A stretch of DNA of 63,372 bases, filler included, from Gemmatimonadota bacterium (GTDB taxonomy: Bacteria > 4572-55 > J002), in assembly GCA_003697105.1 (NCBI GenBank). It is 4 parts of 4 records of this genome, joined end to end, with 100 filler letters (N's around TTAATTAATTAA, not from the genome) between each part and the next. Parts side by side here need not be neighbours in the genome. Positions count along the whole stretch, not along the records: positions 1 to 10,419 come from RFFQ01000087.1; 3 more parts are not named here. The stretch is one strand, 5' to 3'. A model generated the notes under the pieces. That model was not told where the DNA came from and made no database searches. It saw only the letters and a program-made list of their open reading frames with translations. Below, in pieces: positions 1-63,372 of the stretch. Position numbers and translations under genes: made by a program. Numbering within the stretch: position 1 is the first letter of the stretch; the number at the start of each line of letters is the position of its first letter.

Positions 1-680
1 AGCATACCGGGGTCAGCGGCGTTGATTTCCGTAAACCACCCATCTACCAGGCCGCCATCAAAGCTGATGTCGTCTGCGGTGATGCTGATCACGGCGGCAT
101 CGTAGGCAATTTCTGCTTCAAACGCGAAGACCCCATCTTCCCCGCACTCTTCGCTGACATAACCGGTCGTCAACGGCACGGTCACGGTGGTTTCCCCTTC
201 GGGAATAATGCCACTACCAGCGGTGACTTCAATGGGTTCGTCACAACCGCCACCGCCGCCTTGGACTTCAATGGAGCCGTCAATTGCGATGGAGGTGGGA
301 TCGCCTTCATTGTATTGGAAGGTCAGATCCAGCGTCGAGGTGCCAGCACCGACCGCTGTCCATGTCATGTTAAACAGCGTTCCTTCACCCACCAGCGGCT
401 GGGTATTGAAGCCGTTCACCACCAGCATACCGGGGTCAGCGGCGTTGATTTCCGTAAACCATCCATCTACCAGACCGCCATCAAAGCTGATGTCGTCTGC
501 GGTGATGCTGATCACGGCGGCATCGTAGGCAATTTCTGCTTCAAACGCAAAGACCCCATCTTCCCCGCATTCTTCGCTGACATAACCGGTCGTCAACGGC
601 ACGGTCACGGTGGTTTCCCCTTCAGGGATAATGCCACTACCGGCGGTGACTTCAATGGGTTCGTCACAACCGCCACCGCC
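1..680. repeat. Intragenic tandem repeat, 423-nt period (cohesin3/cohesin4)
   Basis: 1-257 matches 424-680 with 7 differences (positions 39, 51, 126, 147, 201, 204, 219), all third-codon positions of the minus-strand frame. Cohesins 1 and 2 form a looser pair with a 420-nt period. Confidence 0.95.
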
Positions 681-1844
681 ATCAGTGACGGTGATATAAT
701 CCACTTTGGTTTCGGTATCTTCTAAAGTACCATCGGAAACCGTCAAGCTGACCGTATAAACGCCGGAAACATCATAGGTATAGGTTGGGTTTTGCATCTC
801 AGAGTCGATAGTGCCGTCGTTATCAAAATCCCACTCCCATGAAGTGATCGGGTTGGAACCGGGCACTGACAGATCGGTGAAAGCCACTTGAAGCGGAGCA
901 TTGCCGGATAAGACATCCGCTTCAAAATCAGCGGAAGGGGGGGTATCACCACCAATAACCGTGATTTCACCGTCAATCGCGTTGGCTTCTGGGTCACCTT
1001 CATTGTAGGTAAAGGTTAAATCCAGTGCGGTTGTACCGCCGCTTTCACCCGTCCAGTTGATGGTGAAAAGCAAGCCTTCTCCGACCAGCGGTTGGGTGCT
1101 AAAGCCATTGACCACCAGCATTCCGGCGTTATCGGCATTGATTTCGGTAAACCAGCCATCCACCAGACCGTCATCAAAATCCACATCATCGCGGGTAACG
1201 GACAAAATATCTGCATCATAGGCAATTTCGGCTTCAAACGCGAAGACACCGTCTTCCCCGCAATCTTCGCTCACATACGCCGTGGTGACTTCTGACATGA
1301 ATGTTTGACCCGGTTCAGAGATGGTCCCGCCGCTAATTGCCACGTCAATGGGTTCATCGCAACCACCGACTTCACCTACTTGCACCGAACCATCGATAGC
1401 GATGGAGGTGGGATCGCCTTCGTTATAGGTAAAAGACATATCGAGGGCGGTTGTACCTTCCCCCACAGCGGTCCAGGTGATATTAAAGAGCAAGCCCTCG
1501 CCGACCAGCGGCTGGGTGCTAAAACCATTGACCACCAGCATTCCGGCGTTATCGGCATTGATTTCGGTAAACCAGCCATCAACCAACCCACCATCAAAAT
1601 CCACATCACCGCGTGCGACGGAAAGAATGGCGTTATCATAAGCGATCTCAGCTTCAAAGGCGAAGACCCCATCTTCCCCGCAATCTTCGCTGACGGGTCC
1701 TGTCGTAACCGGCGTGGTTAGGGTTTCCCCAACGTTCATAATGACGCCGCTACCGATGGTAACTTCAATCGGTTCATCACATTGGGCGTACCCCATTGAG
1801 GTTACGAACAGTAACGTAAAAAGTGAAAAGAATAAACGCTTCAC
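1..1844 (-). CDS. Secreted multi-cohesin scaffoldin-like protein, runs off the left edge: signal peptide - cohesin1 - cohesin2 - PKD - cohesin3 - cohesin4 (partial)
   Basis: Not in the ORF track; translated by hand from GTG at 1844 (SD AGGAGGA at 1852-1858): MKRLFFSLFTLLFVTSMGYA|QCDEPIEVTIGSG...GVFAFEAEIAYDNAILSV...GEGLLFNITWTAVGEGTTALDMSFTYNEG. Modules of about 140 aa start with CDEPI at 1781, 1361, 668 and 245. A PKD motif (APLQVAFTDLS...WEWDFDNDG...NPTYTYDVSGVYTVSLTV) lies at about 690-935. No stop codon before the edge. Confidence 0.88.
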   Translation of the reverse strand, partial: MKRLFFSLFTLLFVTSMGYAQCDEPIEVTIGSGVIMNVGETLTTPVTTGPVSEDCGEDGVFAFEAEIAYDNAILSVARGDVDFDGGLVDGWFTEINADNAGMLVVNGFSTQPLVGEGLLFNITWTAVGEGTTALDMSFTYNEGDPTSIAIDGSVQVGEVGGCDEPIDVAISGGTISEPGQTFMSEVTTAYVSEDCGEDGVFAFEAEIAYDADILSVTRDDVDFDDGLVDGWFTEINADNAGMLVVNGFSTQPLVGEGLLFTINWTGESGGTTALDLTFTYNEGDPEANAIDGEITVIGGDTPPSADFEADVLSGNAPLQVAFTDLSVPGSNPITSWEWDFDNDGTIDSEMQNPTYTYDVSGVYTVSLTVSDGTLEDTETKVDYITVTDGGGGCDEPIEVTAGSGIIPEGETTVTVPLTTGYVSEECGEDGVFAFEAEIAYDAAVISITADDISFDGGLVDGWFTEINAADPGMLVVNGFNTQPLVGEGTLFNMTWTAVGAGTSTLDLTFQYNEGDPTSIAIDGSIEVQGGGGGCDEPIEVTAGSGIIPEGETTVTVPLTTGYVSEECGEDGVFAFEAEIAYDAAVISITADDISFDGGLVDGWFTEINAADPGM

Positions 1845-1912
1845 AACAAAATCCTCCTAAATAAAGAAATGTGGTGCAAAAAAGACTAATCCATCAATAA
1901 TTTGAGCCGTGG

Positions 1913-2506
1913 TTAACGCCCGCTCGGTTCCCAATTTAATGTGACATCCCCAATCAAGATGCCGACAAAATTCACTTCGCGGTCTTCACCACCGGCAAGA
2001 CCCACTTCGATGGCTTCATTGGGTGAAAATGCCCAATCACCTGCCGGAAATTCGTCCAAAATACCGACCGAAAATTGTAAAATTCGGGCGGCATCAAACG
2101 GCGTAATATTACCATCACCGGTCACATCTGCCGCAATTTGTTGGTATTCATCCAAGTCGATCAATCCGGCTGAAAAACGAGCCGCATTTGCCGCATCAAA
2201 CGGACCAATGGCATCCCCTTGATCCCCAAATTTGGAAGGGGTAATGATGTAGTCCCCATCCGCCGCAGCGTCTAAGACATAGCTACCATCGGCATCGCTT
2301 TCCGCTTGGTCACTACACGCACCTTCAAACTCCAGTAACACCCCGGGAACACCAAAATCATTATCCGGGGTCATGACCATCCCATGGAACGCATTGGGTC
2401 CCGAGCATTCTCGTAAATCACCAACGGGACGATCCGCCGCAAACACAGAACCGGCAACAAAAAACACAAGAGTGAGTGTCAGCAAAGATAAAGTTTTGTA
2501 AGACAT
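1913..2506 (-). CDS. Small secreted dockerin-module protein (signal peptide, beta-sandwich, dockerin; no catalytic domain, no sorting domain)
   Basis: Signal peptide ending VFA. Duplicated dockerin helices IGPFDAANAARFSAG and ADVTGDGNITPFDAARILQFSVG (DxxxDGxI Ca-loop). Ends GDVTLNWEPSGR. SD AGGAG upstream. Confidence 0.82.
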   Translation of the reverse strand: MSYKTLSLLTLTLVFFVAGSVFAADRPVGDLRECSGPNAFHGMVMTPDNDFGVPGVLLEFEGACSDQAESDADGSYVLDAAADGDYIITPSKFGDQGDAIGPFDAANAARFSAGLIDLDEYQQIAADVTGDGNITPFDAARILQFSVGILDEFPAGDWAFSPNEAIEVGLAGGEDREVNFVGILIGDVTLNWEPSGR

Positions 2507-2545
2507 CGTGTGAGTCTCCTATAACTAAACGTAAAAAGTGAAAAA

Positions 2546-3352
2546 TTACCGTAACAACATTAATTTTTGATCACCAATTCGATCCGCATTGAGGCCCAAC
2601 TGTGCAATATATACCCCACTTGGGGCCAGTTGATCTGTTGTCGTGGTACCGTCCCAGCGAACGCGATAAGACCCAGCGGACTGAAATTGATCGACCAGCG
2701 TGGTTACTAATCGCCCCTTCAGATCAAAAATCGCTAGATGGACAATCCCCGGTGATGCAATCGCATAAGAAAGGGTGGTCTGCGGATTGAAGGGGTTGGG
2801 ATAATTTGGTTTCAGCACGGAAACCGGGGGGATGAAGGTGTATGGGGTTTCAGGATCAACGTGAATGGGTATGACACTCAAGCGGGGTGGGGGGATGGGG
2901 AGTTCAATCAGGGGGCTTCCTTCATTATAAATACATTCGATGATTATATCGGTCTCACCAAACGCAACGCCCGTCCAGGTGAACTCAAATAAGGTACCGC
3001 TACCCACCAAAGGCACTGTTGTGAACCCTACGACTGTAATTTCACTATCAGCTTGGCTATTTGCAAACCACGTCCACCCGTCGAGTAACTCGCCTGCAGA
3101 AACATCTTCCGGCGTAATGCTAACAATACGCTCATCGAAATAGAGTGTCGTGTGTATGGCAACAACCCCCGGCGGGTCTGAATCTCCACAATCGGCGGCA
3201 ACATATGCTGTGGTCAATTGAGTTGTAACCGTACCCCCCGGCTCGTCAATGGCGGCGTTTTCCATACCGATTGCGATGGGTTCATCACAAGCAAAGGCGC
3301 CCCTACCCACGCACAGCAATAACACTAAATATAAAACAAACAACTTGGACAT
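2546..3352 (-). CDS. Secreted single-cohesin protein with T9SS type A/FlgD-Ig-like C-terminal sorting domain
   Basis: Signal peptide, then CDEPI...DCG...GVVAIHTTLYFD...GSGTLFEFTWTG...YNEG, the same family as the scaffoldin modules. C-terminus NYPNPFNPQTT...IFDLKGRLV...WDG...SGVY...KLMLLR. Confidence 0.85.
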   Translation of the reverse strand: MSKLFVLYLVLLLCVGRGAFACDEPIAIGMENAAIDEPGGTVTTQLTTAYVAADCGDSDPPGVVAIHTTLYFDERIVSITPEDVSAGELLDGWTWFANSQADSEITVVGFTTVPLVGSGTLFEFTWTGVAFGETDIIIECIYNEGSPLIELPIPPPRLSVIPIHVDPETPYTFIPPVSVLKPNYPNPFNPQTTLSYAIASPGIVHLAIFDLKGRLVTTLVDQFQSAGSYRVRWDGTTTTDQLAPSGVYIAQLGLNADRIGDQKLMLLR

Positions 3353-3567
3353 AACGATAAGCGTATCTCCTGAAAATCCAATAAATTGAGGAAGGTAATT
3401 CGGAATTGAAATGCGAGAAAGGTATCATATATGGGGGGGCAATGTTTTGTGACACAGAAACACATCATTCTGTGCATGCTTTTGGGAAAAGTTCAATCCG
3501 GAATTGAAACGCGTTCGCAAAATAATATAACTGATTGTAAAACGCAAGCAGTTTTTAGCCAGATTCC

Positions 3568-3601
3568 GGTGTGTCCGGCGCTTCCCCGTGCCGGACACAC
3601 C
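3568..3601 (-). terminator. Stem-loop immediately after leuS
   Basis: GGTGTGTCCGGC-N10-GCCGGACACACC, a perfect 12-bp stem; no U-tract follows on the minus strand. Confidence 0.45.
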
Positions 3602-3606
3602 ATCCA

Positions 3607-8968: not shown

Positions 8969-8976
8969 TGGCTAAC

Positions 8977-9885
8977 CTACATTTCGGACTCGGATGTCGT
9001 TGCTTCCGTAACCGGTTCTACAGAGAGTACCGGTAAGCCCACGTGGAAGGTTGACCCGTGTTGGGGGGTACTTTGCACCGAAAGAAAACCGCCCATTAAT
9101 TCCACCATCTTTTTGACGATGCTCAAGCCCAAACCGGTACCATCATACTGGCGAGAGCGAGACATATCGACCTGATAAAAGCGTTCAAAAATCAGGTCGA
9201 GGTGTTCCGGTGCGATCCCAATACCCGTATCCGTCACATCGATGCAAAGGGTATTGGCTTTCAACTGAACATGAACCGTCACGGAACCTCCGGGCGGGGT
9301 GAACTTGATGGCATTGGAGAGCAAATTTGTCATGACCGTCTGAAAGCCGTTACGATCAATGTAAATATGGCATGTCTCCGGGTGATACTCAAACCTCAAA
9401 TTGACTGCTGACCGGTTGGCAATATGCGTAAAATAGCGCTCTAACACCTGGATCATCTGTTTCAATTCGGCAACCTCAACCTGAACTTCTCGCTGGTTGG
9501 CATCCAGCGTATTCAGGGTCAAAAGGTCATCGATCAGTGCCAGTTCATGGCCAGCTTGATCAATAATCAATTGTAGAAGTTCCTGCGCTTCTGCTTTTTG
9601 GAAGGAATCGAACATGTCATACAATAGCTGGGCATTGCCGGAGATCGTCGTCAACGGGGTACGTAATTCATGCGAGATATTATCCAAAATCTCCTTTCGG
9701 GTCCGTAATGCCGATTCCTTTTCTGTCAATGCAGTGTCACACTTCACCTTGAAACGGTGCAGTTCCTCACATGCCCATTGTATCATGTTATACAGTTCTT
9801 CTGAAATCGGTTGCTGGCGAAGTAGGGCTTGTATCTGTCCCAAATTGGATTCTAATGAAGATGTCAGGGAATTGGTTTGTGACAT
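8977..9885 (-). CDS. Cytoplasmic sensor histidine kinase (HisKA + HATPase_c, short coiled-coil N-terminus)
   Basis: SHELRTPL, NLLSNAIKF, DTGIGI, GTGLGL; no transmembrane segment. Confidence 0.9.
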   Translation of the reverse strand: MSQTNSLTSSLESNLGQIQALLRQQPISEELYNMIQWACEELHRFKVKCDTALTEKESALRTRKEILDNISHELRTPLTTISGNAQLLYDMFDSFQKAEAQELLQLIIDQAGHELALIDDLLTLNTLDANQREVQVEVAELKQMIQVLERYFTHIANRSAVNLRFEYHPETCHIYIDRNGFQTVMTNLLSNAIKFTPPGGSVTVHVQLKANTLCIDVTDTGIGIAPEHLDLIFERFYQVDMSRSRQYDGTGLGLSIVKKMVELMGGFLSVQSTPQHGSTFHVGLPVLSVEPVTEATTSESEM

Positions 9886-12301: not shown

Positions 12302-13702
<1,401 letters not shown>

Positions 13703-17320: not shown

Positions 17321-17456
17321 ATATCTGTGTGATTCTCCAAAAATTAAGGCAATTAATTGATTGCAGAATGTACCAAAAAATATGGATTCCCGCAAGCGTG
17401 AAATTCGGACACTTTCCATCCGTTAAGGTTGGGTAACCCGGTTTTGTGGATGATCG

Positions 17457-42330: not shown

Positions 42331-42374
42331 ATAGGCGGATGTCCACAAAATCCAGACCTCAGAGGGGAAAAATC

Positions 42375-52748: not shown

Positions 52749-52850
52749 GTTTATCCGAATTCGGACAAAATTTATTCTTTCGTCTGTTTTCGCGATTATT
52801 TCACTCGGGCTAATTCACCTTTTCATTACAAATACGTTTATTATCACCAC
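52705..52850 (+). CDS. N-terminus of a membrane protein, probable sensor kinase (3'-truncated by the contig end)
   Basis: MKRWNQW...IRIRTKFILSSVFAIISLGLIHLFIT overlaps the lipoprotein stop; the (I)RTK+TM start is typical of HAMP sensors. Confidence 0.5.
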
Positions 52851-52950
52851 NNNNNNNNNNNNNNNNNNNNNNNNNNNNNNNNNNNNNNNNNNNNTTAATT
52901 AATTAANNNNNNNNNNNNNNNNNNNNNNNNNNNNNNNNNNNNNNNNNNNN
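52851..52950. other. Artificial contig linker
   Basis: Same 100-nt spacer. Confidence 0.99.
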
Positions 52951-53045
52951 AAATCAAATTGAGCACCAAATGGAACGAAAAATCAAAAAACTGCAGAAAG
53001 CAGCATGAAGACTAAATCAACTAATCATTACTTGTCGAATTTGAG
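52951..53045 (+). mobile_element. Probable right end of a second IS type
   Basis: Contig starts with ...NQIEHQMERKIKKLQKAA* (stop 53006-53008) then ...CTTGTCGAATTTGAG, abutting a truncated gene. Differs from the IS end at 10520. Confidence 0.5.
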
Positions 53046-53527: not shown

Positions 53528-53547
53528 GTCATTCTCTCCAAAAAGAA

Positions 53548-53748: not shown

Positions 53749-56700
53749 TTATTTCAACAGCGTCATACGGTGGGTGCGGACGACCCCCTCACCGGTTTCT
53801 AAAACATAGAGATAAACACCACTGGCAACATCCCGTTGGTACTGATCCGTACCGTTCCACTCCACGGTATGATACCCAGCTTCCATTGTCTCATCCACCA
53901 ATGTGTTGACCAACTGTCCTTGCAGATTATATATCCGCAAGCTGATATGGCAGGCAACTGGCAGCCCAAAATCAATCCGAGTCTTTGGATTGAACGGGTT
54001 CGGATAGTTTTGGCTTAGAATCACCTGTTCTGGAATCATTACTTGGGGTACAATCTTCACTTCAGCCTGAATTGCCGGAAGCGGCTGTTCATTGAACATC
54101 AGATTATCCAGCATAACGGTGCCCGTTTGGCCCACGTCTCCAAGCACCTGAAAGACGATGTTAATCAACGTCCCTTCACCTTCTAACGGCGTTAGGCGAT
54201 ACCCGGCCAGATGTTTAGTGCCTTCGGCGAGAACAAATCCCTCGGTTAACGTTCCGGCGGTACGGTATTCCACAAATTCCAGCATTTCGGAATCATAATC
54301 CAGTACGGCTTGCATGGCGATAACACCCAATCCGGTAACATCCGTCACGTACACCGGAACGATCAATTCATGATCCGGTGCGACGGTCAAATCGGTTACG
54401 GAAAGGGGATTCATCGCCACCGGATGGTCCGCTTTGTGTGCTCGGGCGGCGGCTTCTGGTGACCAGTTGCCGGTCACCTCACCATAGATTATGCCCGTGA
54501 AGTCCTGATCCGGTTGGTCTGCATCTAACGGCATATATTCATACATTTCTGGCAGCCAGAGCCACTCACCGGTACGAGCGCTACTGGAAATATGGGATGA
54601 ATATTGCAGAATCCGAGCGGCATCGAATGGTGAAATCCCACCATCGCCTGTAACATCCGCCGCCATCATCTGATATTCATTGAAATCATACAAACCGGCG
54701 GAGTACTGCGCCACACGCGCCGCATCAAACGCCGAGATGGACGGGTGCGGCTGGGTCGCGTCCCCGTAACCCGCTAAGTTGACACTTAGGGTATAATTTC
54801 CTTCGGGCGTATCCATGAACGCGAACATACCGGTTTCACTGGTTTGCGCGGTAAATTCTCGATCTCCGGCGAGCATTACTTCCGTATTGGAAATCGCGGT
54901 ATCGTTCCAGTATTGCACCTGACCGGTTACATCAAACAAATTACCGCCCACATTGAAGCTAACCGGAATAACAATAGGGTTATCTATATCCGCATCATTA
55001 TGGATGATGGCAAGCGAGCCTGTATATGTGCCCAAAGCGTCCACGCGGCTCGCATCCAGATACACCGTCACTTCCGCAGAGCCATCACTATTGAGGGTGA
55101 GCTGTTCGGGTGTCGTGTAAAGCCAGCGGCTGGGGGAAATCTTCACCGCGAGGTCATCTTGGACATATTCTGCGTTACAGGCAATTTCCAGACCCGCACC
55201 CGCATTATCTTCGATTCCAATAGTGGCACTGTTGAGTATGCCGCTCATGGATTGATAATACAGATGAATATCATCATTATCATGCAAGACAATCTGGAAG
55301 GTGTAATCACCCTCTTGAGAGCTACTGAAGCGTTTCCAATGGGTGTATTGTACCGTGAAGGTGTTTCCATCCGTGTAGTAATACAGTTTACCACCGCGTG
55401 CCCGGAGGTCATCCCAGAATCCGGCAATCATGTTTTCGGGACCATCTGACATACCAATACAACTATTGCTGAAATCCTGGGAATCACTGGTAAAGGTGAT
55501 AAAGCCGGTACTGGCAATATTGACGGTGCTAAAGGTTTGACCATAGAAGTTAAAATCAAACCCAAGTTCAATATCCGGGAAGTTATCGCTGTCGCGGCTG
55601 AACAGTTCCGTACCCACTTCGCGGATGTCGTTCCAAACAAAGAAGGGTCCGCCATCTTCATTGCTATCTGTCCAGGTGTAACCGTAATAGTCGGGTCCGC
55701 CACTGCTACGCAAAACGGGCGTATTTTGGTTACGGTCGGTTTCGCCATGTACACCGCCTTCATCCACACCCACGACCGTCTTTTTGAGGTAACGAGTAGA
55801 GGCGGTTTCCATATCGGCGCGAATTTCCGCCATCAGGGGGAGGTCACCGCTCCCCAGATTGTCGATGGTCAACGTGACTTCAGCCATTTCACCTAAATCA
55901 TTGACTTGTGCGCTGATTTCTACCGGTTCAACCGTAATTTGCGGATCCGTCACGGTGATCGATACCGGGATGTTAATGGTATTGGCACAACCAAAGTTTG
56001 CCGTTAGGGTAGTGGTATATGTTCCGGCTTCGCTGGGTGCCGTAATCCAGACCGTGACCGTTTCGGAGTAGCGGGGCATCAATCCGTTGCCCATGGATGG
56101 GCTGGTGTCCAACCACGCCGCTTCGGGGTCTTCTGTAAAGGTATAATCCAGCGCGGCAGTGGCGGTAGCATCATTGGTTATCACAATTTCGACGGATTCC
56201 GTCTGATTTTCGTACAGATTGAGCGAAATTGCATCCGTATCCATCAGCGGAAGACATTCGCCTCCGGTAATTGTAAAGTAACAACCGACTTCTACATCCG
56301 GATGTTCCGGATCGTTGCTGAGGATGTGGGCAACGGCATAATATTCACCGTCAATCATGGTTGCTCCGCCGGCGCTTGCCGGTTGGGCATCAAAGAAGAC
56401 CGATTCGGTTACCGATTCACCTGCCATTACCGTACCCATTCCCGGGTTAAACGTGGCATACTCATAGGCGAAGTCACCCAAATCAATACCAACCAATTGG
56501 TCTGGATCGGATTGCACCATGGCACACAGCAGAATCGTACCGATTTCCCATTGAGTGGTCAGGAACAGACCGCCCGTGTAGGGACCACTGATACCCGGGG
56601 AAAGCGTTACACCGGTTAATTCCTGATTAAAAATATCATACTGGGAGATGACCGGATCACCTCCCGAATACGGGTCAAAAATCCAAAGGTAGGGTCCACC

Positions 56701-59700
56701 TAATGTCAGATTATCATACGCCAATCCAGTGATGCGATAGCTTGGATGATCGTAATACTCAACGGTACCATCCCGGTGGATAAACTGGATACCTTCATAA
56801 CTCCCGACCCAGAATCCATCCCGATCTTCATCGTAGGTCAGCCCGTCAAGGGAGACCAATTCTGGAATTTCAATCGTTCCAACAACGGCTTGAGCATCCA
56901 GATCAATTTGGTATAATGTATTACCCCGAGCCCCATCGGAGTAATAGGTGGCATATAAATATTCGCCATCCGAGGTAAAATCAAGGAAACCCACGGCAGC
57001 ATTGATACCACTAATGACCATGTGGTCTAAAATGTTACCATTTCGATCCAGTTTGTAAATGTGGGGCCGGTTAAAATCGCCTGTGTAAAAATAGGTTCCA
57101 TCAAAATATACGGCGGATTGGTACGGCGACTGTGTTTCTGCCTGCACATTCACATTGAGCAGGACATCACCTTGATCGCGTAGCACGGGAGTACTGGTAC
57201 GGCTTTGCGGAAGACTGCCTTCCACCGGCAATGTGGTAGTAATTGGATCGGAATTATCCAGCGAATAATGGGGGCGGGAAAACGCTTCTTTCAAGGGACG
57301 TACTGAGCGCGCCGCCGCCACTTGAGGCACTTCCGCGTTATAATCCACCACGATTTGGTAAGTTAAATCCCCAGAACCCGTATTTTGAATCACCACATCT
57401 ACCGGGTCTGTCGTTAAACCGGTATTGCGATCAATCGATAGACGAAGTTCTTCCGTGTCAACCCCAATTTCCGGATTATAGACATTCATGGCGACCGGAA
57501 CATTCAATGTTCCACTGTTGTCACCGGCTTCCCAGTGGATGAAGATGGTGCCTTCCAGCGTGCCTACCTCTTGGGCAGTATTAAATATAACGTCCATTTC
57601 CCGGCATTCCCCCGGGACGATTCCGGAATCCCAAGCTGGGCTGAACAAGAGCCAATCCACATCGGTACTCACCGTCCAGGCAATCGCTGAGGTGGAAGTT
57701 TCCGCATTACAAACATTTAAGGTTTGCGTGTACGGGGTATATGCCAGCACAGTTTCATTCAGTTCTTCCGGCACCACTGAGACCTCTGCGGTACCGCCAG
57801 TGATGTTCATTTCAATCGGGATGATACATTGCGGGGTTTCGGGGTCGTTGGATTCAATGATCATGTTGGCATAGTACATTCCGGCAAGCAATCCGGGTTC
57901 CGGGTTGAACGTGAGTGTTGTTGGTATGGATTCGCCGCCGGCAATTACTCCTTCATACGGTTCGGCGGAAACCCAAGAGACCGGCGGATTGATCATCACC
58001 GCCAATTGATTGTGGATATACGGCTCATTACAGACAATTTCCAAGCCGCGTTGGGCATTATCCTCAATGCCGGCAACAATCGGGACGGTATCGCCGACCA
58101 TCGTGTCATAGTACAATGCCATACGCCCATCGCGATGGATCACAAATTGGAACGTATATGGACCGCCGATACCGTAATAGCCCATCACGGCATCAAATTC
58201 AACAATAAACTCATCGGGACCCGCTTGGTAATAGACCGTTCCGCCCCACGGTACGCCTAAATCTGCCCAGAAAGCGGCAAACATATTTTCGGGACCATCA
58301 ATATCACCGATACACGAATTGGTGTAATCCACCATATTGCTGGTGAATGAGAGATAGCCTTTGCTACAAATATAAACACTGTTAAACGTTTGCCCGTAGA
58401 ATTCAAAATCGAAGCCCAAATCAAAGGGTCCTTGGGTCTCATCTGCGCCCATCAATAACTCTACTCCACTTTCACTGATGTCGTTCCAGATAAACTCAGG
58501 ACCCCCCGCTTCATCGCTGTCTATCCAGGTGTAGCCATACCAATCCGGACTCCCTGTGTTTCGTAGATTCCGGGCATCTTGGCGGCGTTCCGCGCGAACA
58601 TCGATCACACCCTGATGTTCTGCGTTCGGGGTGACATCGACCCCTTCAATGGTCTGCGGTAATCCTCCGGGGAGGGAGAGTTCCGGTCTCAGTTGAAGAT
58701 CAATGGTGTAAACCAAATCACCTTCGCCACTGTTGGTCAGAGTGAAATTGTCTGGATACGGGACATCGGTTTGCCCGACTTCAAAATCGATAGTCAATGT
58801 TTCATCGCATCCCACCGGGCTTGGTTCTATCCGCGGTACATAGACATCTAAAACCACCGGAACAGTGATTGTGCCGGAAGTTTCGTAATCCCCTTCTTGG
58901 TTGTCCGTCCAGTTGATGAGGAGATTGACCTCATTATCCCCTTCTGGGACGCCGGTGGCATCAAAGTACAGGGTGATTTCATCGGTGGCATCAAAGCCGA
59001 GAGGCTCTTCATTCGTGTAGTGGTCTAAGGTCAACCAGCTTACGGCGGGTTCCAGTACAATTTCGTAGTCTAACGTCGTATTGGCATTTGCTCCATTGCC
59101 GATGATCAGGGTATTTTCATCGTTGGTTTCGCCGGGTTGCAAGCTCACTCGGAACGAGTCCGGCATCGCATACGGATCGGGCGCACCCCCAACAAGGTTG
59201 AATTCACAATAGACCGGGAATTCGGGTATTTCGGGGTCATTGCTTTCAAAGGTCGCCGTGGCGTAGTAGAGTCCGCTAAACAGAATTTCTGCGCCATCGT
59301 CTTCGGGGTCGGCATCAAATTTAATAGTACCCATCACTGGGGAATCTTCGGGCCACACCGAGGCGACCTCCGGTATTACCGAGAGGAACGGGAAGCTACC
59401 AACCCCCCGGGCACCTAGCAGATCACTAAACCGGGCTTGATTTACCAGATTGGTTTGCGGATTCCAGTGATACTGACCAACCCATAGTTCACCGGCAAAA
59501 TCAAATTCACATCCACCGGTAAAGAGTTCTGGCGAAACGGGGTCCACAAAGATCGTTTCTTGTTCGCCAGAAGGGTCATATAATGCCCAATTATCAGCCA
59601 CTTCCGTAGTTTGCAACAAGCGGTTTGACGCTTCGTGGAAGGCTAATGTTGCGGGATAGTTCAAGGCAGAGGGGAAACTACTGATCAGCGTTCCCGGTTG

Positions 59701-62700
59701 CCCATTATCAATGCCGTCAATCACTAAAATTTGGTTTTGGAATGAGCCAATATAGAACTGGTCGGTATTGTGGTTGTAGGAAAGACCTGAACAGCGCTGG
59801 AACATGGCGATCCAGGGACCATCTAACTGGTAGAGCAATTCACCGGTTTCAATATCCATCCCCATCAGGTAGGAGGCGTTGAAATTCTCTTGCCCCAATA
59901 ACCACAGAATATTGTGATTGTGGTCGTATGCCATATCGCTGTAGCCCGCCCACGGGTAATACCCCCATTCGAGGAGGGGCACAGAGCGGATAAATGCCCC
60001 GCTTGCTTCTTCATGCAACGAAAGTTGTGGGTAACCGTTCAGTAATTGGCCAAACACCCAGACCCCATCCGGTGTCCAACATGCCAATTGTGCTTGGAGA
60101 CCCTCGGCTTCCCAACTGGTTAGAATTTCACCGGTTCGTAGGCTTGATCCTGTTTTTTCCGGGGTGGTTTTACGCACCATCGCTTGAGAAAGCGGCTTGG
60201 CATTCGGTGGCAGTGACCGCCCCTCTGGAGCGCCGTAATTGTAGCTAACTTCATATAGCATGGGACCCGTACCGTTGTTGTACACGTAAATATCATCCGT
60301 GACTTCGTAACCGGCAGGCGGGTTATCCAAATCGATGGTCATATAGTAGGCATCTTCCACCACATCAATATTGGGGTTATAGATATTCATTCCGACCGGA
60401 ATATCAACGGTGCCACTGCATTCACTCCCGACCCAATCGATGGAAAGTACGGTTTCATATATCCCCACACGTTGATCGGTATTAAATGTAAGCGTGATCT
60501 CATCACAATCATTGGGGCGCAGTTGCGTCCCGGACATCATATCCAGAGACAACCAATCTGGGAGTTCAGATGTGACCTGCCAATTCACTACCGCGTTTGA
60601 AGTGGCCGCATTACAGAAGTTCAACGTTTTTTGCAAAGGTTCATTTTCCAGCGCATATTCATAAAATTCTTCTGGAGCGGTGGACACCTCCGCACAACCG
60701 CCGGTGATATGGAAGACACACAGCACTTGTTCATCCGGCATTTCCGGGTCGTTGTTTTTAAAGTGAACATTCACAAAATAGTCATCAGCGATCAGAATGG
60801 GGGTTTCTTCACCATTCGGCTGGGCATCAAAGATGACGGTGCCTTCCAGCGGTGAATCTTCAGGCCATACAGCGGCGGCGGGCGGGTCAATTACCAACCA
60901 CGGCAGGCGGTCTCTTCGACCGAGCAACGTACCAAAATCCACTTGATACACCATGTTGACCCCGTTTACATTTTGCCGCACCATCCATAAATGACCGTAC
61001 TCATCAAACTCGATTCCCGCCCCTCGACCGATACCATCATTTGCGGGGGGGTCATACTGGCTTTCAATTTCGCCGGTTTCGGGATCAACTAGATAGATAT
61101 ACTCCAATTCCCCATTGTTGGTCACCGCAAGTTTATTGGCGCCTTCGTGGAAGGCTAGTCCGGCCACTCCCTGAAACGGGATAGTGTTGATCGTTGCGCC
61201 TGGGGTCTCGCTATCGATTCCTTCTACGACATAGATCACCGTATAGTTCCAGCTACCGATGTAAAAGGTATCGGTATTGTTATCATAGGCTAATCCACGA
61301 GCGGAGGAGAAGGTCCATTCTCCGGTCAACGTTTCGACCACCTCTCCGCTATCATAATCTATCCCGTAAATGGCGTTTCCTTCCAAACCGCTTACTTGTA
61401 CAACCCACAAGATGTTATGGTTGGCATCGTATGCCATATCCGCGCACCAAAGCTCCATGAAGCTTTCCATACTAAGTTCTGGGGCGAGCCGCCTCCCATC
61501 TTCATACCGGTGGGAAGAGATGATCGGGTCTGGATCAAAAATGCTGTAATGGTTCAGCCAAATGGCTTCATCGGTAGTCGCAAGCCCCCAACTATTGGGG
61601 ACATCTTCCGGCACCCAACTATTGAGCACCTCACCCGTGGAGCGGATATGCCCGCTATCTTCCACACGATAGTCGATTCCGAGTGCATTTTTGGCGTCCG
61701 GGTCTGGCGGTGTCAGGATTTCCGAAGGGGTATAGTGAGGATTGCGGGTGCGCGGAAATGCCTGATAGAGCGGTTTCAAGTCTCCGTAGCGCGCTAGCAT
61801 TTCCGGTGTGGCGTCAAAGGTATATTCGACTTCGTACACCAAGGGACCCACACCGGTATTGTGAATAAAAATATCATCGAGGAACTCGTAGCCTACCGGT
61901 GGATTTTCCAGATCGAGGGTCATCTCATAGGTGTTTTCCACCACATCAATATCTGGATTGAAAATGTCCATGGTTACCGGAATCAAGATCGTGCCGGCAC
62001 TTTCCCCACCGCTCCATTCAATCACAACGGTGGTTTCATACAGCCCGACCGCTTGGTTTGTATCATAGGTAAAATCGACCTTATGGCATTCTCCCGGTTC
62101 CAGATCGTGCCCACTCATCATACTGAGGGTTAACCAGTCAGGAATCTCGGAGGCAATTTCCCAATCGACTAAAACATTAGAGAGTTCATCGCTACACAAG
62201 GTCACCCGGTGTTGCAACGGGTCTTGAGCGACGATATAATCGTATAGTTCATCGGTATCGGAGGTCAAGGTTGCCGTTCCACCGGTGATGTTGAAGGTAC
62301 AGAGCACTTCCACATCCGGGGTAACCGGGTCGTTGCTCAAAATGTGGGCAATTGCGAAGTATGAGCCGGCAAGCATCACATTTTCGCCGTCATCTTCGGG
62401 GTCGGCGTCAAAGTAGATCATGCCGGTTAAGCCGTTATCTTCGGGCCACACCGAAGCGGCAGGGGGGTCTATCACTACCCAAGGCACCCCAGAATATCCT
62501 AAATCGATTCCGAAAAGAACATCCGGGTAGGCTTGGGTTATTCCGCCCAATGTTGCGGTATTGTCGATATAATCGGTGGTGACAAATGCACCACCGGCGA
62601 TACCGCTACCGTAGGTCATATCATAGGTAAAACCGGTCAGCTCTCCGGTAGCAATTTCCAACTGGTGGAGAATCCCCCCGCCATCTTGACTAAACAGCCA

Positions 62701-63372
62701 GAGGTACGGACCGCCAGGGGAATAATTATCACAGGCAATACCATATAAATTTGCCACCGGATTTGTAATCTCTTGAACAACTTCCCAATCCCGGTTCGCA
62801 AAATAAAGCGGTGTATTATAATTGCTGTACCAGAAGCCATCCAGCCGGTCGTCGTATGTCAGACCGGTGATGTAAGTTCCTGTGGGAGACGGGATGGTAT
62901 TAATCAACTCGTTGGTTTCCACATTAATAACGTGAATATTGTCATTCTCAGACCCATAAAGATATTCACCATCCCATGCAAGGTCTCGGATACCATAGAT
63001 ACCAATGAGGTTAATTGTATCAACTAGATTTCCCTCGCGATCCAATTTGTAAATCAGATTATCATCATATTGGCTGATGTAGAAGTACGTGCCGTCAAAC
63101 TCGCACCCGACCGAGCCGTAATCTCCCAAAATGGCATTTAAATCAAATTCAAACAAAACGTCACCGACTTCACGCAAATTGCCGGAATCGGCTTCGCGAC
63201 GAGACTCCACACCGGGTAAGAGATCGGTATGTTCGGTATCTTCGACGGTTTCAATTTGGGCTTGCCGGTTGCGTGTTGTGCGGAAGGATTCGTGTAAGGG
63301 GCGTAGATGTGCCGGGACTTCCATTTCAGCTAAATAATCAACTTCAACCTCGTAAAGCAACGGACCCGAACC
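53749..63372 (-). CDS. Giant modular surface protein (>3200 aa, 5'-partial): repeated Ig-like domains, 4 beta-propeller-like inserts, 2 G.PD.YGYTW.DS domains, dockerin, cohesin, T9SS-type sorting domain
   Basis: Frame is open to the window edge (GSGPLLYE...). Recurrent N.G.G.L.Y and SNDP Ig motifs. Dockerin at about 54590-54745 (ADVTGDGGISPFDAARILQ), cohesin at about 54060-54400 (VPVYV...GVIAMQAVLDYD...GEGTLINIVF), C-terminus QNYPNPFNP...SGVY...RMTLLK. Confidence 0.9.
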   Translation of the reverse strand, partial: GSGPLLYEVEVDYLAEMEVPAHLRPLHESFRTTRNRQAQIETVEDTEHTDLLPGVESRREADSGNLREVGDVLFEFDLNAILGDYGSVGCEFDGTYFYISQYDDNLIYKLDREGNLVDTINLIGIYGIRDLAWDGEYLYGSENDNIHVINVETNELINTIPSPTGTYITGLTYDDRLDGFWYSNYNTPLYFANRDWEVVQEITNPVANLYGIACDNYSPGGPYLWLFSQDGGGILHQLEIATGELTGFTYDMTYGSGIAGGAFVTTDYIDNTATLGGITQAYPDVLFGIDLGYSGVPWVVIDPPAASVWPEDNGLTGMIYFDADPEDDGENVMLAGSYFAIAHILSNDPVTPDVEVLCTFNITGGTATLTSDTDELYDYIVAQDPLQHRVTLCSDELSNVLVDWEIASEIPDWLTLSMMSGHDLEPGECHKVDFTYDTNQAVGLYETTVVIEWSGGESAGTILIPVTMDIFNPDIDVVENTYEMTLDLENPPVGYEFLDDIFIHNTGVGPLVYEVEYTFDATPEMLARYGDLKPLYQAFPRTRNPHYTPSEILTPPDPDAKNALGIDYRVEDSGHIRSTGEVLNSWVPEDVPNSWGLATTDEAIWLNHYSIFDPDPIISSHRYEDGRRLAPELSMESFMELWCADMAYDANHNILWVVQVSGLEGNAIYGIDYDSGEVVETLTGEWTFSSARGLAYDNNTDTFYIGSWNYTVIYVVEGIDSETPGATINTIPFQGVAGLAFHEGANKLAVTNNGELEYIYLVDPETGEIESQYDPPANDGIGRGAGIEFDEYGHLWMVRQNVNGVNMVYQVDFGTLLGRRDRLPWLVIDPPAAAVWPEDSPLEGTVIFDAQPNGEETPILIADDYFVNVHFKNNDPEMPDEQVLCVFHITGGCAEVSTAPEEFYEYALENEPLQKTLNFCNAATSNAVVNWQVTSELPDWLSLDMMSGTQLRPNDCDEITLTFNTDQRVGIYETVLSIDWVGSECSGTVDIPVGMNIYNPNIDVVEDAYYMTIDLDNPPAGYEVTDDIYVYNNGTGPMLYEVSYNYGAPEGRSLPPNAKPLSQAMVRKTTPEKTGSSLRTGEILTSWEAEGLQAQLACWTPDGVWVFGQLLNGYPQLSLHEEASGAFIRSVPLLEWGYYPWAGYSDMAYDHNHNILWLLGQENFNASYLMGMDIETGELLYQLDGPWIAMFQRCSGLSYNHNTDQFYIGSFQNQILVIDGIDNGQPGTLISSFPSALNYPATLAFHEASNRLLQTTEVADNWALYDPSGEQETIFVDPVSPELFTGGCEFDFAGELWVGQYHWNPQTNLVNQARFSDLLGARGVGSFPFLSVIPEVASVWPEDSPVMGTIKFDADPEDDGAEILFSGLYYATATFESNDPEIPEFPVYCEFNLVGGAPDPYAMPDSFRVSLQPGETNDENTLIIGNGANANTTLDYEIVLEPAVSWLTLDHYTNEEPLGFDATDEITLYFDATGVPEGDNEVNLLINWTDNQEGDYETSGTITVPVVLDVYVPRIEPSPVGCDETLTIDFEVGQTDVPYPDNFTLTNSGEGDLVYTIDLQLRPELSLPGGLPQTIEGVDVTPNAEHQGVIDVRAERRQDARNLRNTGSPDWYGYTWIDSDEAGGPEFIWNDISESGVELLMGADETQGPFDLGFDFEFYGQTFNSVYICSKGYLSFTSNMVDYTNSCIGDIDGPENMFAAFWADLGVPWGGTVYYQAGPDEFIVEFDAVMGYYGIGGPYTFQFVIHRDGRMALYYDTMVGDTVPIVAGIEDNAQRGLEIVCNEPYIHNQLAVMINPPVSWVSAEPYEGVIAGGESIPTTLTFNPEPGLLAGMYYANMIIESNDPETPQCIIPIEMNITGGTAEVSVVPEELNETVLAYTPYTQTLNVCNAETSTSAIAWTVSTDVDWLLFSPAWDSGIVPGECREMDVIFNTAQEVGTLEGTIFIHWEAGDNSGTLNVPVAMNVYNPEIGVDTEELRLSIDRNTGLTTDPVDVVIQNTGSGDLTYQIVVDYNAEVPQVAAARSVRPLKEAFSRPHYSLDNSDPITTTLPVEGSLPQSRTSTPVLRDQGDVLLNVNVQAETQSPYQSAVYFDGTYFYTGDFNRPHIYKLDRNGNILDHMVISGINAAVGFLDFTSDGEYLYATYYSDGARGNTLYQIDLDAQAVVGTIEIPELVSLDGLTYDEDRDGFWVGSYEGIQFIHRDGTVEYYDHPSYRITGLAYDNLTLGGPYLWIFDPYSGGDPVISQYDIFNQELTGVTLSPGISGPYTGGLFLTTQWEIGTILLCAMVQSDPDQLVGIDLGDFAYEYATFNPGMGTVMAGESVTESVFFDAQPASAGGATMIDGEYYAVAHILSNDPEHPDVEVGCYFTITGGECLPLMDTDAISLNLYENQTESVEIVITNDATATAALDYTFTEDPEAAWLDTSPSMGNGLMPRYSETVTVWITAPSEAGTYTTTLTANFGCANTINIPVSITVTDPQITVEPVEISAQVNDLGEMAEVTLTIDNLGSGDLPLMAEIRADMETASTRYLKKTVVGVDEGGVHGETDRNQNTPVLRSSGGPDYYGYTWTDSNEDGGPFFVWNDIREVGTELFSRDSDNFPDIELGFDFNFYGQTFSTVNIASTGFITFTSDSQDFSNSCIGMSDGPENMIAGFWDDLRARGGKLYYYTDGNTFTVQYTHWKRFSSSQEGDYTFQIVLHDNDDIHLYYQSMSGILNSATIGIEDNAGAGLEIACNAEYVQDDLAVKISPSRWLYTTPEQLTLNSDGSAEVTVYLDASRVDALGTYTGSLAIIHNDADIDNPIVIPVSFNVGGNLFDVTGQVQYWNDTAISNTEVMLAGDREFTAQTSETGMFAFMDTPEGNYTLSVNLAGYGDATQPHPSISAFDAARVAQYSAGLYDFNEYQMMAADVTGDGGISPFDAARILQYSSHISSSARTGEWLWLPEMYEYMPLDADQPDQDFTGIIYGEVTGNWSPEAAARAHKADHPVAMNPLSVTDLTVAPDHELIVPVYVTDVTGLGVIAMQAVLDYDSEMLEFVEYRTAGTLTEGFVLAEGTKHLAGYRLTPLEGEGTLINIVFQVLGDVGQTGTVMLDNLMFNEQPLPAIQAEVKIVPQVMIPEQVILSQNYPNPFNPKTRIDFGLPVACHISLRIYNLQGQLVNTLVDETMEAGYHTVEWNGTDQYQRDVASGVYLYVLETGEGVVRTHRMTLLK

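Follow-up and report, generated by a model that had tools for sequence, protein, structure and literature searches.

The window, i.e. the whole 63,372-nucleotide stretch of Gemmatimonadota DNA considered here, carries at one of its ends three genes lying in the same orientation on the minus strand, called here anc, doc and sca (Table 1); anc and doc are separated by 39 nt, doc and sca by 68 nt, and anc lies 254 nt from leuS, whose 827-aa product was named by its match to annotated genomes. An SD-like site precedes each gene and the three N-termini, as read from the translations, all resemble Sec signal peptides, running from K/R through a hydrophobic stretch to small residues at -3/-1; the description of three co-oriented secreted genes, each with an SD site, given in the initial annotation is thus confirmed. 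At the LeuS-anchored loci of other genomes neither a cohesin nor the sandwich-dockerin cassette described below was found (0 of 80), a count which is little informative because the best of these loci is only 58% identical in LeuS.

Table 1. Features of the three-gene cluster and of the giant ORF (positions along the window)
Feature	Position	Strand	Basis
anc, 268-aa secreted protein: signal peptide, one cohesin, Pro-rich linker, T9SS type-A CTD	2546..3352	-	ORF, Pfam/NCBIfam, AF2 model
anc signal peptide, aa 1-21	3290..3352	-	translation; small residues at -3/-1 before first module cysteine
anc cohesin, aa 22-165, two-cysteine 'CDEP' subtype	2858..3289	-	likeness to sca module 1, Foldseek
anc T9SS type-A CTD, aa 183-268	2549..2806	-	TIGR04183, FlgD_ig, AF2 model
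SD-like AGGAGA, anc	3366..3371	-	13 nt ahead of anc ATG
doc, 197-aa secreted protein: signal peptide, transthyretin-like beta-sandwich, dockerin, four closing strands	1913..2506	-	ORF, Pfam, AF2 model
doc dockerin, aa ~90-155	2042..2239	-	Dockerin_1, PDB dockerin sequences, model helices
doc C-terminal tail, aa 156-197, four strands	1916..2041	-	conserved columns, strands 158-184
SD-like AGGAGA, doc	2515..2520	-	8 nt ahead of doc ATG
sca, multi-cohesin protein truncated at its 3' end by the window (first 614 codons)	3..1844	-	open-ended ORF, Pfam
sca signal peptide, aa 1-21, GTG start	1782..1844	-	translation
sca cohesin module 1, aa 22-161	1362..1781	-	Pfam Cohesin 22.7 bits singly, profile positions 2-138 of 139
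sca cohesin module 2, aa 162-300	945..1361	-	73% identical to module 1; Pfam 14.5 bits singly
sca PKD domain, aa 302-386 by PKD_4	669..944	-	PKD_4 48.4, PKD 31.7 bits; PDB 1l0q_A E 3.1e-11
sca cohesin module 3, aa 393-533	246..668	-	73% identical to module 1; no Pfam match singly
sca cohesin module 4, partial, aa 534-614 (81 aa)	3..245	-	DNA 97% identical to module 3
SD-like AGGAGG, sca	1853..1858	-	8 nt ahead of sca GTG
Giant ORF, 5' open, second cohesin/dockerin gene of window	53749..63372	-	custom profile, Pfam
Giant ORF CTD	53752-54003	-	FlgD_ig 34.7
Giant ORF cohesin	54043-54432	-	Pfam Cohesin 39.8 singly, cut-off 24.1
Giant ORF beta-sandwich-dockerin cassette	54451-54945	-	Dockerin_1 24.6 (cut-off 22.9), CarboxypepD_reg 37.2 (cut-off 32.3), scanned singly

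The C-terminal domain of anc exceeds the cut-offs of the T9SS type-A sorting domain TIGR04183 (29.0 bits, cut-off 23) and of FlgD_ig (30.3 bits, cut-off 27) and stays under that of Por_Secre_tail (19.0 bits, cut-off 27). The AF2 model of the protein (mean pLDDT 83.0) consists of two beta-sandwiches, with a helix (residues 3-15) in the signal peptide and a pLDDT of 92-97 over aa 191-260 of the CTD. The cohesin, 40% identical to sca module 1, finds no Pfam match when scanned singly; in Foldseek the model gives single-domain matches to solved cohesins (TM(target) 0.74 for 5nrm_A, rmsd 3.4; 0.72 for both 5nrk_A and 3ul4_A), followed by 4uyp_A (0.65). The reading of anc as a single cohesin fused to a T9SS-type sorting domain is borne out. 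Among database proteins 198 relatives were retrieved at E<=1e-3, mostly matched via the CTD and many carrying PF18962/PF13860; the only near-full-length one is P0002 (38% identity).

The doc product had been regarded as dockerin-only, which is not borne out, since the dockerin lies between a beta-sandwich on its N-terminal side, which CarboxypepD_reg matches weakly at aa 41-94, and four C-terminal strands. The dockerin itself scores 17.9-19.0 bits with Dockerin_1, under the cut-off of 22.9, and is matched by PDB dockerin sequences (8zvk_A at E 2.4e-4, 4uyq_B and 4uyp_B at E 7.4e-4); as read from the alignment, the Ca loop of its first repeat is degenerate and that of the second canonical, the degeneracy of the first repeat being common to all seven aligned relatives. 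In the AF2 model (mean pLDDT 80.4) three helices (102-112, 120-126 and 136-146) lie between two sets of strands; Foldseek returned no match at E<=0.001, its top-ranking entries being CnaB/transthyretin-like sandwiches, with the X-dockerin chain 4wi0_B at rank 48. The sandwich-dockerin cassette, with invariant columns, is common to 7/7 aligned sequences, and so are residues W158, P162, F180, I183, G186, N191 and W192 of the tail. Near-length relatives are limited to P0122 (33% identity); in the Atlas, stand-alone cassette proteins of ~190 aa form several clusters of 50-78 members each, Dockerin_1 being detected in 35-76% of the members of these look-alikes. No catalytic domain was detected in doc. 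It lacks a CTD as well, so that its assembly at the surface would call for an export step which its signal peptide does not account for.

An ORF search lists sca only when open ends are allowed, which may explain its absence from an ORF track; P0131, the gene call in the database, begins 15 residues downstream of the GTG and lacks the signal peptide. The entire protein scores 34.7 bits with Pfam Cohesin (cut-off 24.1), and PKD_4 is well above its cut-off of 27; module 4 scanned singly has no Pfam match, and the module calls made by the custom profile are matches by construction, the modules themselves being in the profile. A direct repeat (1-257 vs 424-680, 97% DNA identity) corresponds to modules 3 and 4, which are a recent duplication. 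Of the scaffoldin with at least four cohesins and a PKD that had been proposed, three and a half tandem cohesins and the PKD stand, in a fragment cut by the window; the term scaffoldin is overstated. Indeed, what is seen of sca probably forms the start of a giant T9SS surface protein rather than a pure scaffold, because its best relative by sequence, P0132, 59% identical to sca aa 21-302 at its N-terminus, is a 3,493-aa multi-domain protein (PPC, NIDO, BACON_2, cohesin, FlgD_ig) ending in a cohesin and a CTD; the CTD of sca is assumed from this one relative, the 3' end of sca being missing. A member of the P0132 cluster, RMH73869.1, is named 'T9SS C-terminal target domain-containing protein [Gemmatimonadetes bacterium]'.

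The cohesins of the cluster are a divergent two-cysteine subtype, whose place among cohesins is given by profile searches and predicted fold. A profile of five window modules retrieved 1,998 database representatives at E<=1e-3 (587 at <=1e-10 and 51 at <=1e-30); all 33 top hits scanned are above the Pfam Cohesin cut-off, and 13 of them carry Por_Secre_tail or FlgD_ig. A second profile, of seven CDEP-type modules with the Pfam-positive one omitted, matched 144/145 proteins (E<=1e-3, Z=1.84e9) in a set pre-selected by the earlier five-module search. Among 146 cohesin proteins examined, 53 carry a CTD and 73 the full sandwich-dockerin cassette. The HMM searches thus place Pfam Cohesin, PKD_4, TIGR04183 and FlgD_ig over their cut-offs and Dockerin_1 in doc under it, and the identities assigned to the modules (cohesins, dockerin, T9SS type-A CTD) are borne out. 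The premise that cohesin-dockerin pairs and T9SS are an unexpected combination is, on the other hand, out of date: such proteins are common in databases and a proposal exists for Ca. Stygibacter (see below), so that the arrangement is real, already described and widespread, and not a new type of machine.

Complex prediction for the anc cohesin with doc gave a score of 0.38 (runs 0.42, 0.38 and 0.37; best of three controls 0.00), with a contact agreement between runs of at least 98% and a partner pLDDT of at least 93; the mark is passed by 116/157 solved complexes and 2/215 mismatched pairs, and passes at a score <=0.60 comprise only 18 of the 157 solved complexes plus both mismatches. The predicted binding is therefore a weak in-silico pass, and it may reflect likeness only, because cohesin-dockerin complexes are already solved; for the candidate cohesin-dockerin complex of the initial annotation, this one pass is the support. 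It could be argued that the modules are mere structural beta-sandwich spacers which have lost mutual binding, their clustering being functionally meaningless: single CDEP-type modules fall below the Pfam Cohesin cut-off or are unmatched (22.7, 14.5, none and none in sca; none in anc), PDB sequences searched with a profile of them yield no cohesin at E<=10, all seven aligned relatives have a degenerate first dockerin repeat, complex support is weak, and in many relatives fn3, Big_9 and cadherin-like domains are interspersed among the cohesins, as in ordinary adhesins. This explanation is nevertheless unlikely, given the co-occurrence of cassette and cohesin in one polypeptide in half of the proteins examined (73/146), the strong conservation of the modules (38 invariant columns in alignment A5), the recent duplication of modules 3/4, the canonical second Ca loop and the null scores of the complex-prediction controls.

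A different role for the cohesin-CTD protein would be that of an export adaptor, CTD-less doc-type proteins binding an anc-like cohesin in the periplasm and passing through the T9SS folded and in complex with it. The organization of the two genes is suggestive, anc being a minimal cohesin plus CTD immediately upstream of doc, whose signal peptide is not accompanied by any sorting domain (no NCBIfam family at E<=1); the stand-alone cassette proteins of the Atlas and the weak predicted pass point in the same direction, and the T9SS, according to the available part of PMC9251779, translocates folded proteins over the outer membrane. Such hitch-hiking is very unlikely all the same: the literature matches listed, as far as their available text goes, hold no description of T9SS piggyback or co-secretion, doc could exit by another route or remain periplasmic, and PorU, which cleaves the CTD at the surface, may not tolerate a partner bound to the substrate.

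Of the ORFs listed for the window, 65 are at least 120 aa long; 38 were scanned for families (the three cluster proteins, at E<=1 in Pfam, and 35 further large ORFs, at E<=1e-5), the other 27 being a duplicate listing of the giant ORF, LeuS and ORFs overlapping larger ones. Neither glycoside-hydrolase families nor CBMs were found in the 38, and the earlier statement that no glycoside hydrolase is visible in the window holds for this set. The giant ORF lies outside the anc/doc/sca cluster, and the Pfam scan detected no enzyme domain in it. In relatives the cassette occurs in the C25 peptidases P0123 and P0124 and in the S8 peptidase P0141; the longer hits of doc (8/8) have C25 peptidase domains or none, and a glycoside hydrolase in no case.

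These observations bear on whether the cluster is a true cellulosome analogue, with sca as a scaffoldin gathering dockerin-bearing polysaccharide-degrading enzymes and anc as the anchor, which is the model proposed for Ca. Stygibacter and, as to scaffoldin and anchor, also the view of the initial annotation. Tandem cohesins, a cohesin joined to a CTD in a protein of its own and a dockerin protein do lie together in one cluster, CBM_4_9 is present in 1/33 relatives scanned (P0154) and, in the available text of PMC8542988, Ca. Stygibacter has dockerins on GH18 and GH57, also on S8 and C25 proteins, and a 3,755-aa protein with tandem cohesins, CBMs and a CTD. The analogy is quite unlikely to hold for the present cluster, however, in view of the absence of such families from the scanned ORFs, of the two dockerins of the window, one lying on a 197-aa protein without cargo and the other on a giant protein showing no enzyme domain, of the relatives found with doc, which have C25 peptidase domains or none, and of P0132, which has neither GH nor CBM (E<=1e-6) beside its PPC, NIDO and BACON_2 domains.

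The reading we prefer, with a probability of about 55%, is that the three genes specify components of a non-cellulosomal system by which an uncultured FCB-group diderm assembles surface proteins through cohesins and dockerins. The host looks diderm by sequence, as had been claimed, a TPR protein at 30561-33296 being above the cut-offs of YbgF (237 vs 90) and BamD (125 vs 81), scores which TPR repeats inflate; CTD-bearing relatives have FCB-type labels in the database matches. By analogy with the known behaviour of type-A CTD proteins, anc would be exported by Sec, fold in the periplasm, pass through the type IX system as directed by its CTD and be retained on the cell surface, displaying one cohesin; sca would cover 614 aa at the N-terminus of a surface protein of far greater length, probably CTD-bearing too, whose tandem two-cysteine cohesins would offer several docking sites; and doc would be a small secreted beta-sandwich whose dockerin, with one canonical and one degenerate Ca loop, may plug into such cohesins. 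The likeliest cargo would be proteins with the same cassette and not cellulases, i.e., judging from relatives, peptidases of the C25 and S8 families as well as adhesin-like proteins of giant size that have cohesins too, and the main role of the system would accordingly be to link surface proteins with the cell and with one another. Against this reading, co-transcription of the three genes is without support, the promoter scan being at chance level (1 found vs 2.9 expected). Of the diderm cellulosome-like surface complex first put forward, the module identities and the diderm look stand, whereas the scanned ORFs show no GH or CBM, the window has no T9SS core gene (GldK-like 91 vs a cut-off of 350, PorW-like 117 vs 250), and doc has no outer-membrane sorting signal.

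The closest precedent is the CTD-anchored cellulosome-like complex inferred by Williams et al. 2021 (PMC8542988) for Ca. Stygibacter of the Cloacimonadota, an in-silico inference like the present one. As far as the available text of that paper goes, the two share an FCB-group diderm host, signal-peptide dockerin proteins, a very large protein whose tandem cohesins are combined with a T9SS-type CTD serving surface attachment, and proposed non-cellulose substrates, C25 and S8 peptidases included; they differ in that the Ca. Stygibacter dockerins lie on named enzymes and its scaffoldin carries CBM2/CBM3, while the present cluster shows neither enzyme nor CBM, adds a dockerin protein without cargo and a cohesin-CTD protein of minimal make-up, and has its nearest relatives labelled Gemmatimonadetes. 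In the accessible parts of their descriptions, the 'planctosome' of Nemodlikiaceae (PMC6461901) differs in being anchored via a lamin-tail domain and Chlorobiota Cag_2037/2038 (bioRxiv 10.64898/2026.03.19.712371) in T1SS secretion in Chlorobium, neither text portion describing a three-gene split arrangement with a CTD. The A. fulgidus cohesin 2xdh is matched by the anc model (TM(target) 0.64, rmsd 3.0).

Clostridial cellulosomes, with type I/II cohesin-dockerin pairs, a scaffoldin and an anchoring scaffoldin, are anchored by SLH or sortase. They share with the present cluster the cohesin fold, the sequence likeness of the dockerin and the principle of combining a multivalent scaffold with a cohesin bound to the cell, and the sandwich beside the dockerin recalls the X-dockerin dyad seen in 4wi0_B; here, in contrast, the host is diderm, the anchor is a T9SS CTD, GHs and CBMs are not seen, the cohesins are of the two-cysteine subtype and singly under the Pfam cut-off, and the first dockerin Ca loop is degenerate. 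Non-cellulosomal cohesin/dockerin modules are reportedly the subject of Peer et al. 2009, and the planctosome, Chlorobiota and A. fulgidus cases named above belong with them; such modules likewise occur outside cellulose degradation, often in giant surface proteins or adjacent to peptidases, and sometimes cohesin and dockerin are both in one protein. Finally, P0132/RMH73869.1 shares with sca an N-terminal signal peptide and two cohesins of the two-cysteine subtype; P0132 is complete while sca is cut after 614 aa, and after the second cohesin it continues with PPC domains where sca has the PKD and further cohesins.

Three genes, anc, doc and sca, are encoded in this order on the minus strand between positions 3 and 3352, with leuS (3607-6090) upstream; leuS and anc are 254 nt apart, anc and doc 39 nt, and doc and sca 68 nt. 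The initial annotation had described three co-oriented secreted genes with Shine-Dalgarno sites, and its description agrees with what is found: SD-like sequences precede all three starts (AGGAGA 13 nt ahead of anc, AGGAGA 8 nt ahead of doc, AGGAGG 8 nt ahead of sca), and the translations of all three begin with N-termini resembling Sec signal peptides. An anc-doc-sca operon is plausible; a promoter and terminator scan of positions 1700-3800 gave results at or below chance, and an Rfam scan of the window returned one tRNA and nothing else. A genome scan anchored on LeuS recovered neither a cohesin nor the cassette formed by a CarboxypepD_reg-like beta-sandwich and a dockerin in any of 80 loci, which belong to Saccharibacteria, KSB1, Neomarinimicrobiota, Bacillota and others, with best-segment identities of 44-58% and no close genome among them.

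Cohesin and dockerin genes at the two ends of the window
Feature	Coordinates	Strand	Composition
anc	3352..2546	-	268 aa: signal peptide, cohesin-like module (aa 22-165), proline-rich linker, T9SS C-terminal domain (CTD)
doc	2506..1913	-	197 aa: beta-sandwich, dockerin, closing strands
sca	1844..3	-	signal peptide (GTG start), modules 1-2, PKD, module 3, 81 aa of module 4
giant ORF	63372..53749	-	3,207 codons, 5' open; second cohesin/dockerin gene, at the opposite window end

The sca gene runs off the end of the window. Of the scaffoldin with at least four cohesins and a PKD domain noted in the initial annotation, the PKD domain (PKD_4 48.4 bits; PDB 1l0q_A, E 3.1e-11) and the tandem cohesins are there, with three full modules and 81 aa of a fourth. 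At the start of the window, positions 1-257 repeat positions 424-680 directly with 97% DNA identity (modules 4 and 3, respectively), which is probably why the assembly ends within sca. In the databases the protein is recorded as P0131, with 599 aa, under a gene call that begins at an internal ATG and has lost the signal peptide; the upstream GTG (1782-1844, minus strand), with its AGGAGG 8 nt ahead, brings the signal peptide back. The closest full-length relative is P0132, a database protein of 3,493 aa containing PPC, NIDO, BACON_2, at least five cohesins and a FlgD_ig CTD, to whose start residues 21-302 of sca are 59% identical; its cluster mate RMH73869.1, from a Gemmatimonadetes MAG, is named as a T9SS C-terminal target domain protein.

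Whether the modules of sca and anc are cohesins is not settled by Pfam module by module. The Cohesin model (PF00963) scores 34.7 on whole sca, against a gathering cut-off of 24.1, while singly modules 1 and 2 reach 22.7 and 14.5, and module 3, the partial module 4 and the anc module give no match; the cohesin of the giant protein, scored alone, reaches 39.8. A profile of the modules with the CDEP motif, run against PDB sequences, found no cohesin; nothing but a fortuitous match to PII fell within E<=10, and it involved the extra N-terminal part of P0002 (the full-length relative of anc) in alignment A5. Since no single module passes Pfam and no PDB cohesin is reached by sequence, these CDEP-type modules are to be regarded as divergent. 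The link to cohesins is provided by intermediates: with a limit of E<=1e-3, a profile built from five window modules matches 1,998 representatives out of 1.84 billion, of which 587 remain at E<=1e-10 and 51 at E<=1e-30, and Pfam Cohesin lies well above its cut-off in 33 of the 33 top profile matches scanned, at the same positions where checked. A second profile, made of seven CDEP-type modules only, matches 144 of 145 relatives at E<=1e-3 (Z=1.84e9), 112 of them by best single domain, in a set pre-selected by the five-module profile. The sca modules and anc share the CDEP start motif and a second cysteine, both invariant in the five rows of A5, and among the 146 relatives examined the motif occurs in P0132 only. 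On the profile links and on the fold match of the anc model, the cohesin fold having been modelled on the anc module and not on those of sca, we accept the sca and anc modules as cohesins of a two-cysteine subtype. The cohesin identity assigned in the initial annotation thus holds under HMM and structural scrutiny, through homology via intermediates and the anc fold, with the modules singly below the Pfam threshold.

The description of anc as a single cohesin fused to a T9SS-type sorting domain is borne out at both ends of the protein. Its CTD occupies residues 183-268, at the extreme C-terminus, and scores 29.0 with TIGR04183 (cut-off 23) and 30.3 with FlgD_ig (cut-off 27), with Por_Secre_tail at 19.0 staying under its cut-off of 27; the curated score and the C-terminal position are those of a type-A sorting domain. 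The AlphaFold2 model (mean pLDDT 83.0) was computed from a 20-row alignment, A4, which took the place of A3, into which non-cohesin N-termini had been mixed; in the model a linker of low confidence connects two beta-sandwiches. In a Foldseek search of the PDB the compact single-domain matches of this model are solved cohesins, with TM(target) of 0.74 for 5nrm_A (rmsd 3.4), 0.72 for 5nrk_A and 3ul4_A, 0.65 for 4uyp_A, 0.64 for 2xdh (a non-cellulosomal cohesin of A. fulgidus) and 0.62 for 6kge_A; matches spanning both domains are assorted two-domain proteins, PorU (6za2_A) being among the matches. A word-indexed search found a full-length relative of anc in P0002 alone, which covers 99% of the query at 38% identity; the remaining matches, out of 198 in all, are mostly via the CTD, and the few organism names among them are Calditrichaeota, Zixibacteria or Rhodothermia.

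The protein encoded by doc had been called dockerin-only, which has to be corrected, as in its model (7-row alignment, pLDDT 80.4) a beta-sandwich precedes the dockerin and four strands follow it: five strands span residues 38-91, three helices 102-146 and four strands 158-184. The tail strands may complete the sandwich, in which case the dockerin would be an insertion. Dockerin_1 (PF00404) scores 17.9 on the whole protein and 19.0 on residues 90-197, below the gathering cut-off of 22.9, and the CarboxypepD_reg match is weak (E 0.12); dockerin sequences of the PDB do match doc (8zvk_A, E 2.4e-4; the ScaB dockerins 4uyq_B and 4uyp_B, E 7.4e-4). A canonical dockerin is built of two tandem segments, each composed of a Ca2+-binding loop and a helix. 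In the seven-sequence alignment the second segment of doc carries a canonical calcium loop of the D-x-T/N-x-D-G type followed by a helix; in the first, all seven sequences keep the helix, and their loop is shortened and lacks the acidic residues normally present there. Foldseek with the whole model, in which the sandwich dominates, gave no match at E<=0.001, an X-dockerin chain appearing first at rank 48. The relatives of doc comprise P0122, a database protein of near length (33%; PF00404 in the precomputed column), and eight longer ones, including two C25 (gingipain-like) peptidases of 1,400 aa with a CTD, labelled Gemmatimonadetes; its Atlas look-alikes include several clusters of stand-alone cassette proteins of about 190 aa, whose known phyla are mostly Bacteroidota.

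The giant ORF contains BACON_2, NIDO and HYDIN-like Ig domains, followed at its C-terminal end by the cassette, then by a cohesin that passes Pfam and by a FlgD_ig CTD; its cassette passes both Pfam models (Dockerin_1 24.6, cut-off 22.9; CarboxypepD_reg 37.2, cut-off 32.3). Dockerin and cohesin thus stand in one chain, adjoining the sorting signal. That sca and the giant ORF could be one gene interrupted by the ends of the window was considered, as they lie on the same strand, and rejected: the termini do not overlap, the frames do not join and there is no cohesin in the first 700 aa of the giant ORF. A circular replicon of the size of the window, carrying housekeeping genes, is unlikely; the two are treated as separate genes. 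The position of both window ends inside giant cohesin genes suggests repeat-driven assembly breaks. Just downstream of the stop of the giant gene, in positions 52001-54000, G+C falls to 0.411, its minimum in the window (0.45-0.52 elsewhere), and a 168-aa ORF in this block (53021-53527) has neither a Pfam nor an NCBIfam match at E<=1e-5.

Among the 146 non-window representatives examined, which come from the best 150 of the 1,998 and are biased to multi-cohesin proteins, 39 have at least four cohesins, 53 have a CTD at their end (by our own HMM) and 73 combine cohesin and complete sandwich-dockerin cassette in one chain. The order cohesin, cassette, cohesin recurs within single database proteins (P0126, P0220, P0141 and others); this unnamed super-module may serve self-association.

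Other genes of the window include two adjoining, divergent Glu/Leu/Phe/Val dehydrogenase paralogues (10687-11973, minus strand; 12341-13702, plus strand), a CheA-like hybrid kinase (6260-9885, minus strand; Hpt, H-kinase_dim, HATPase, CheW and receiver domains) adjoining a second, small histidine kinase, and, at 42339-47101 on the plus strand, a 1,300-aa cyclase/AAA_16/TPR protein whose stop overlaps the start of a 287-aa protein; the latter resembles the D-cycloserine synthetase DcsG below threshold (174 bits, cut-off 360).

The pairing of cohesin and dockerin put forward in the initial annotation was addressed by complex prediction with the anc cohesin (residues 22-168), doc (34-197) and two Ca2+. 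The complex scores 0.38 (runs 0.42, 0.38 and 0.37), the best of three controls 0.00; contacts agree between runs to at least 98% and partner pLDDT is at least 93. Of 157 solved complexes 116 reach the mark, as do 2 of 215 mismatched pairs; with a score no higher than 0.60, it is reached by 18 of the solved complexes and by both of the mismatched pairs. The prediction lends the pairing weak support, and the pass may reflect likeness only, because cohesin-dockerin complexes have already been solved.

As to export, secretion would follow the type-A CTD route, as is known for proteins with this kind of CTD. In doc neither a CTD nor any different sorting domain was detected (0 NCBIfam families at E<=1), and this lack of an outer-membrane signal suggests a hitch-hiking mechanism, in which anc would be the adaptor for export: dockerin proteins that lack a CTD, doc among them, would dock to it in the periplasm and cross the type IX translocon folded and in complex. 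According to the part of PMC9251779 consulted, the T9SS moves folded proteins; hitch-hiking through the T9SS was not described in the portions of the literature searched. We give this reading roughly one chance in ten; if true, a single sorting signal would serve many dockerin-tagged cargos across the outer membrane. The weak points of the mechanism proposed for the cluster as a whole, secretion by the CTD route included, are the 3' end of sca, which lies beyond the window, the window's lack of T9SS genes and the absence from doc of an outer-membrane signal. None of the core components PorK/L/M/N, SprA/Sov, PorU and PorV was found in the 63-kb window, where GldK-like (91, cut-off 350) and PorW-like (117, cut-off 250) matches are generic FGE-sulfatase or TPR ones. 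The first of these concerns an FGE-sulfatase domain protein (16469-17419, minus strand), whose sub-threshold PorK/GldK likeness (91 bits) is domain-level and no evidence of a T9SS ring protein. TPR matches of the YbgF and BamD types, above cut-off, suggest a diderm envelope, and the lineage looks FCB-like.

As the initial annotation had observed, the window shows no glycoside hydrolase; a scan of 38 ORFs turned up neither this nor a CBM. Dockerin-bearing glycoside hydrolases, by which a cellulosome is recognized, are thus absent from these ORFs, and the 614 aa of truncated sca hold three and a half cohesins and no CBM. Dockerin-bearing hydrolases occur in relatives only (P0123 and P0124, of family C25, and P0141, of S8). 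If the modules bind as proposed, the cluster would offer a compact, three-gene entry to a very large class of FCB surface proteins combining cohesins, dockerins and a T9SS sorting signal, the module profile matching 1,998 representatives; the small anc and doc are convenient for binding and structural work, and suited to asking how a CTD-less dockerin protein reaches the surface.

Non-cellulosomal cohesins and dockerins have long been known, and Peer et al. in 2009 reportedly dealt with such modules. Literature searches returned no paper joining cohesin and dockerin with either Latescibacteria or Gemmatimonadota. In the parts of the sources consulted, a 'planctosome' is proposed for Planctomycetes (PMC6461901), a cohesin-dockerin pair on giant proteins is described in Chlorobiota (bioRxiv 2026), and a CTD-anchored cellulosome-like complex is inferred for Ca. 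Stygibacter, an FCB diderm (PMC8542988); among titles and abstract beginnings combining cohesin, dockerin and T9SS, the same claim appears in the last only. The Stygibacter type, as far as that text was consulted, combines dockerin-bearing hydrolases with a large protein of tandem cohesins and a terminal CTD; here tandem cohesins are present, and a CTD is found on anc, the giant protein and P0132, sca itself being truncated. The local peculiarities are the two-cysteine cohesins, a minimal protein made of cohesin and CTD, and a dockerin protein that shows no cargo, and the supplements of PMC8542988 may list closer architectures. Because a CTD-anchored, cellulosome-like complex has already been proposed for an FCB diderm and the relative P0132 is annotated as a T9SS substrate, the cluster belongs to a known, experimentally untested kind and constitutes no new category.
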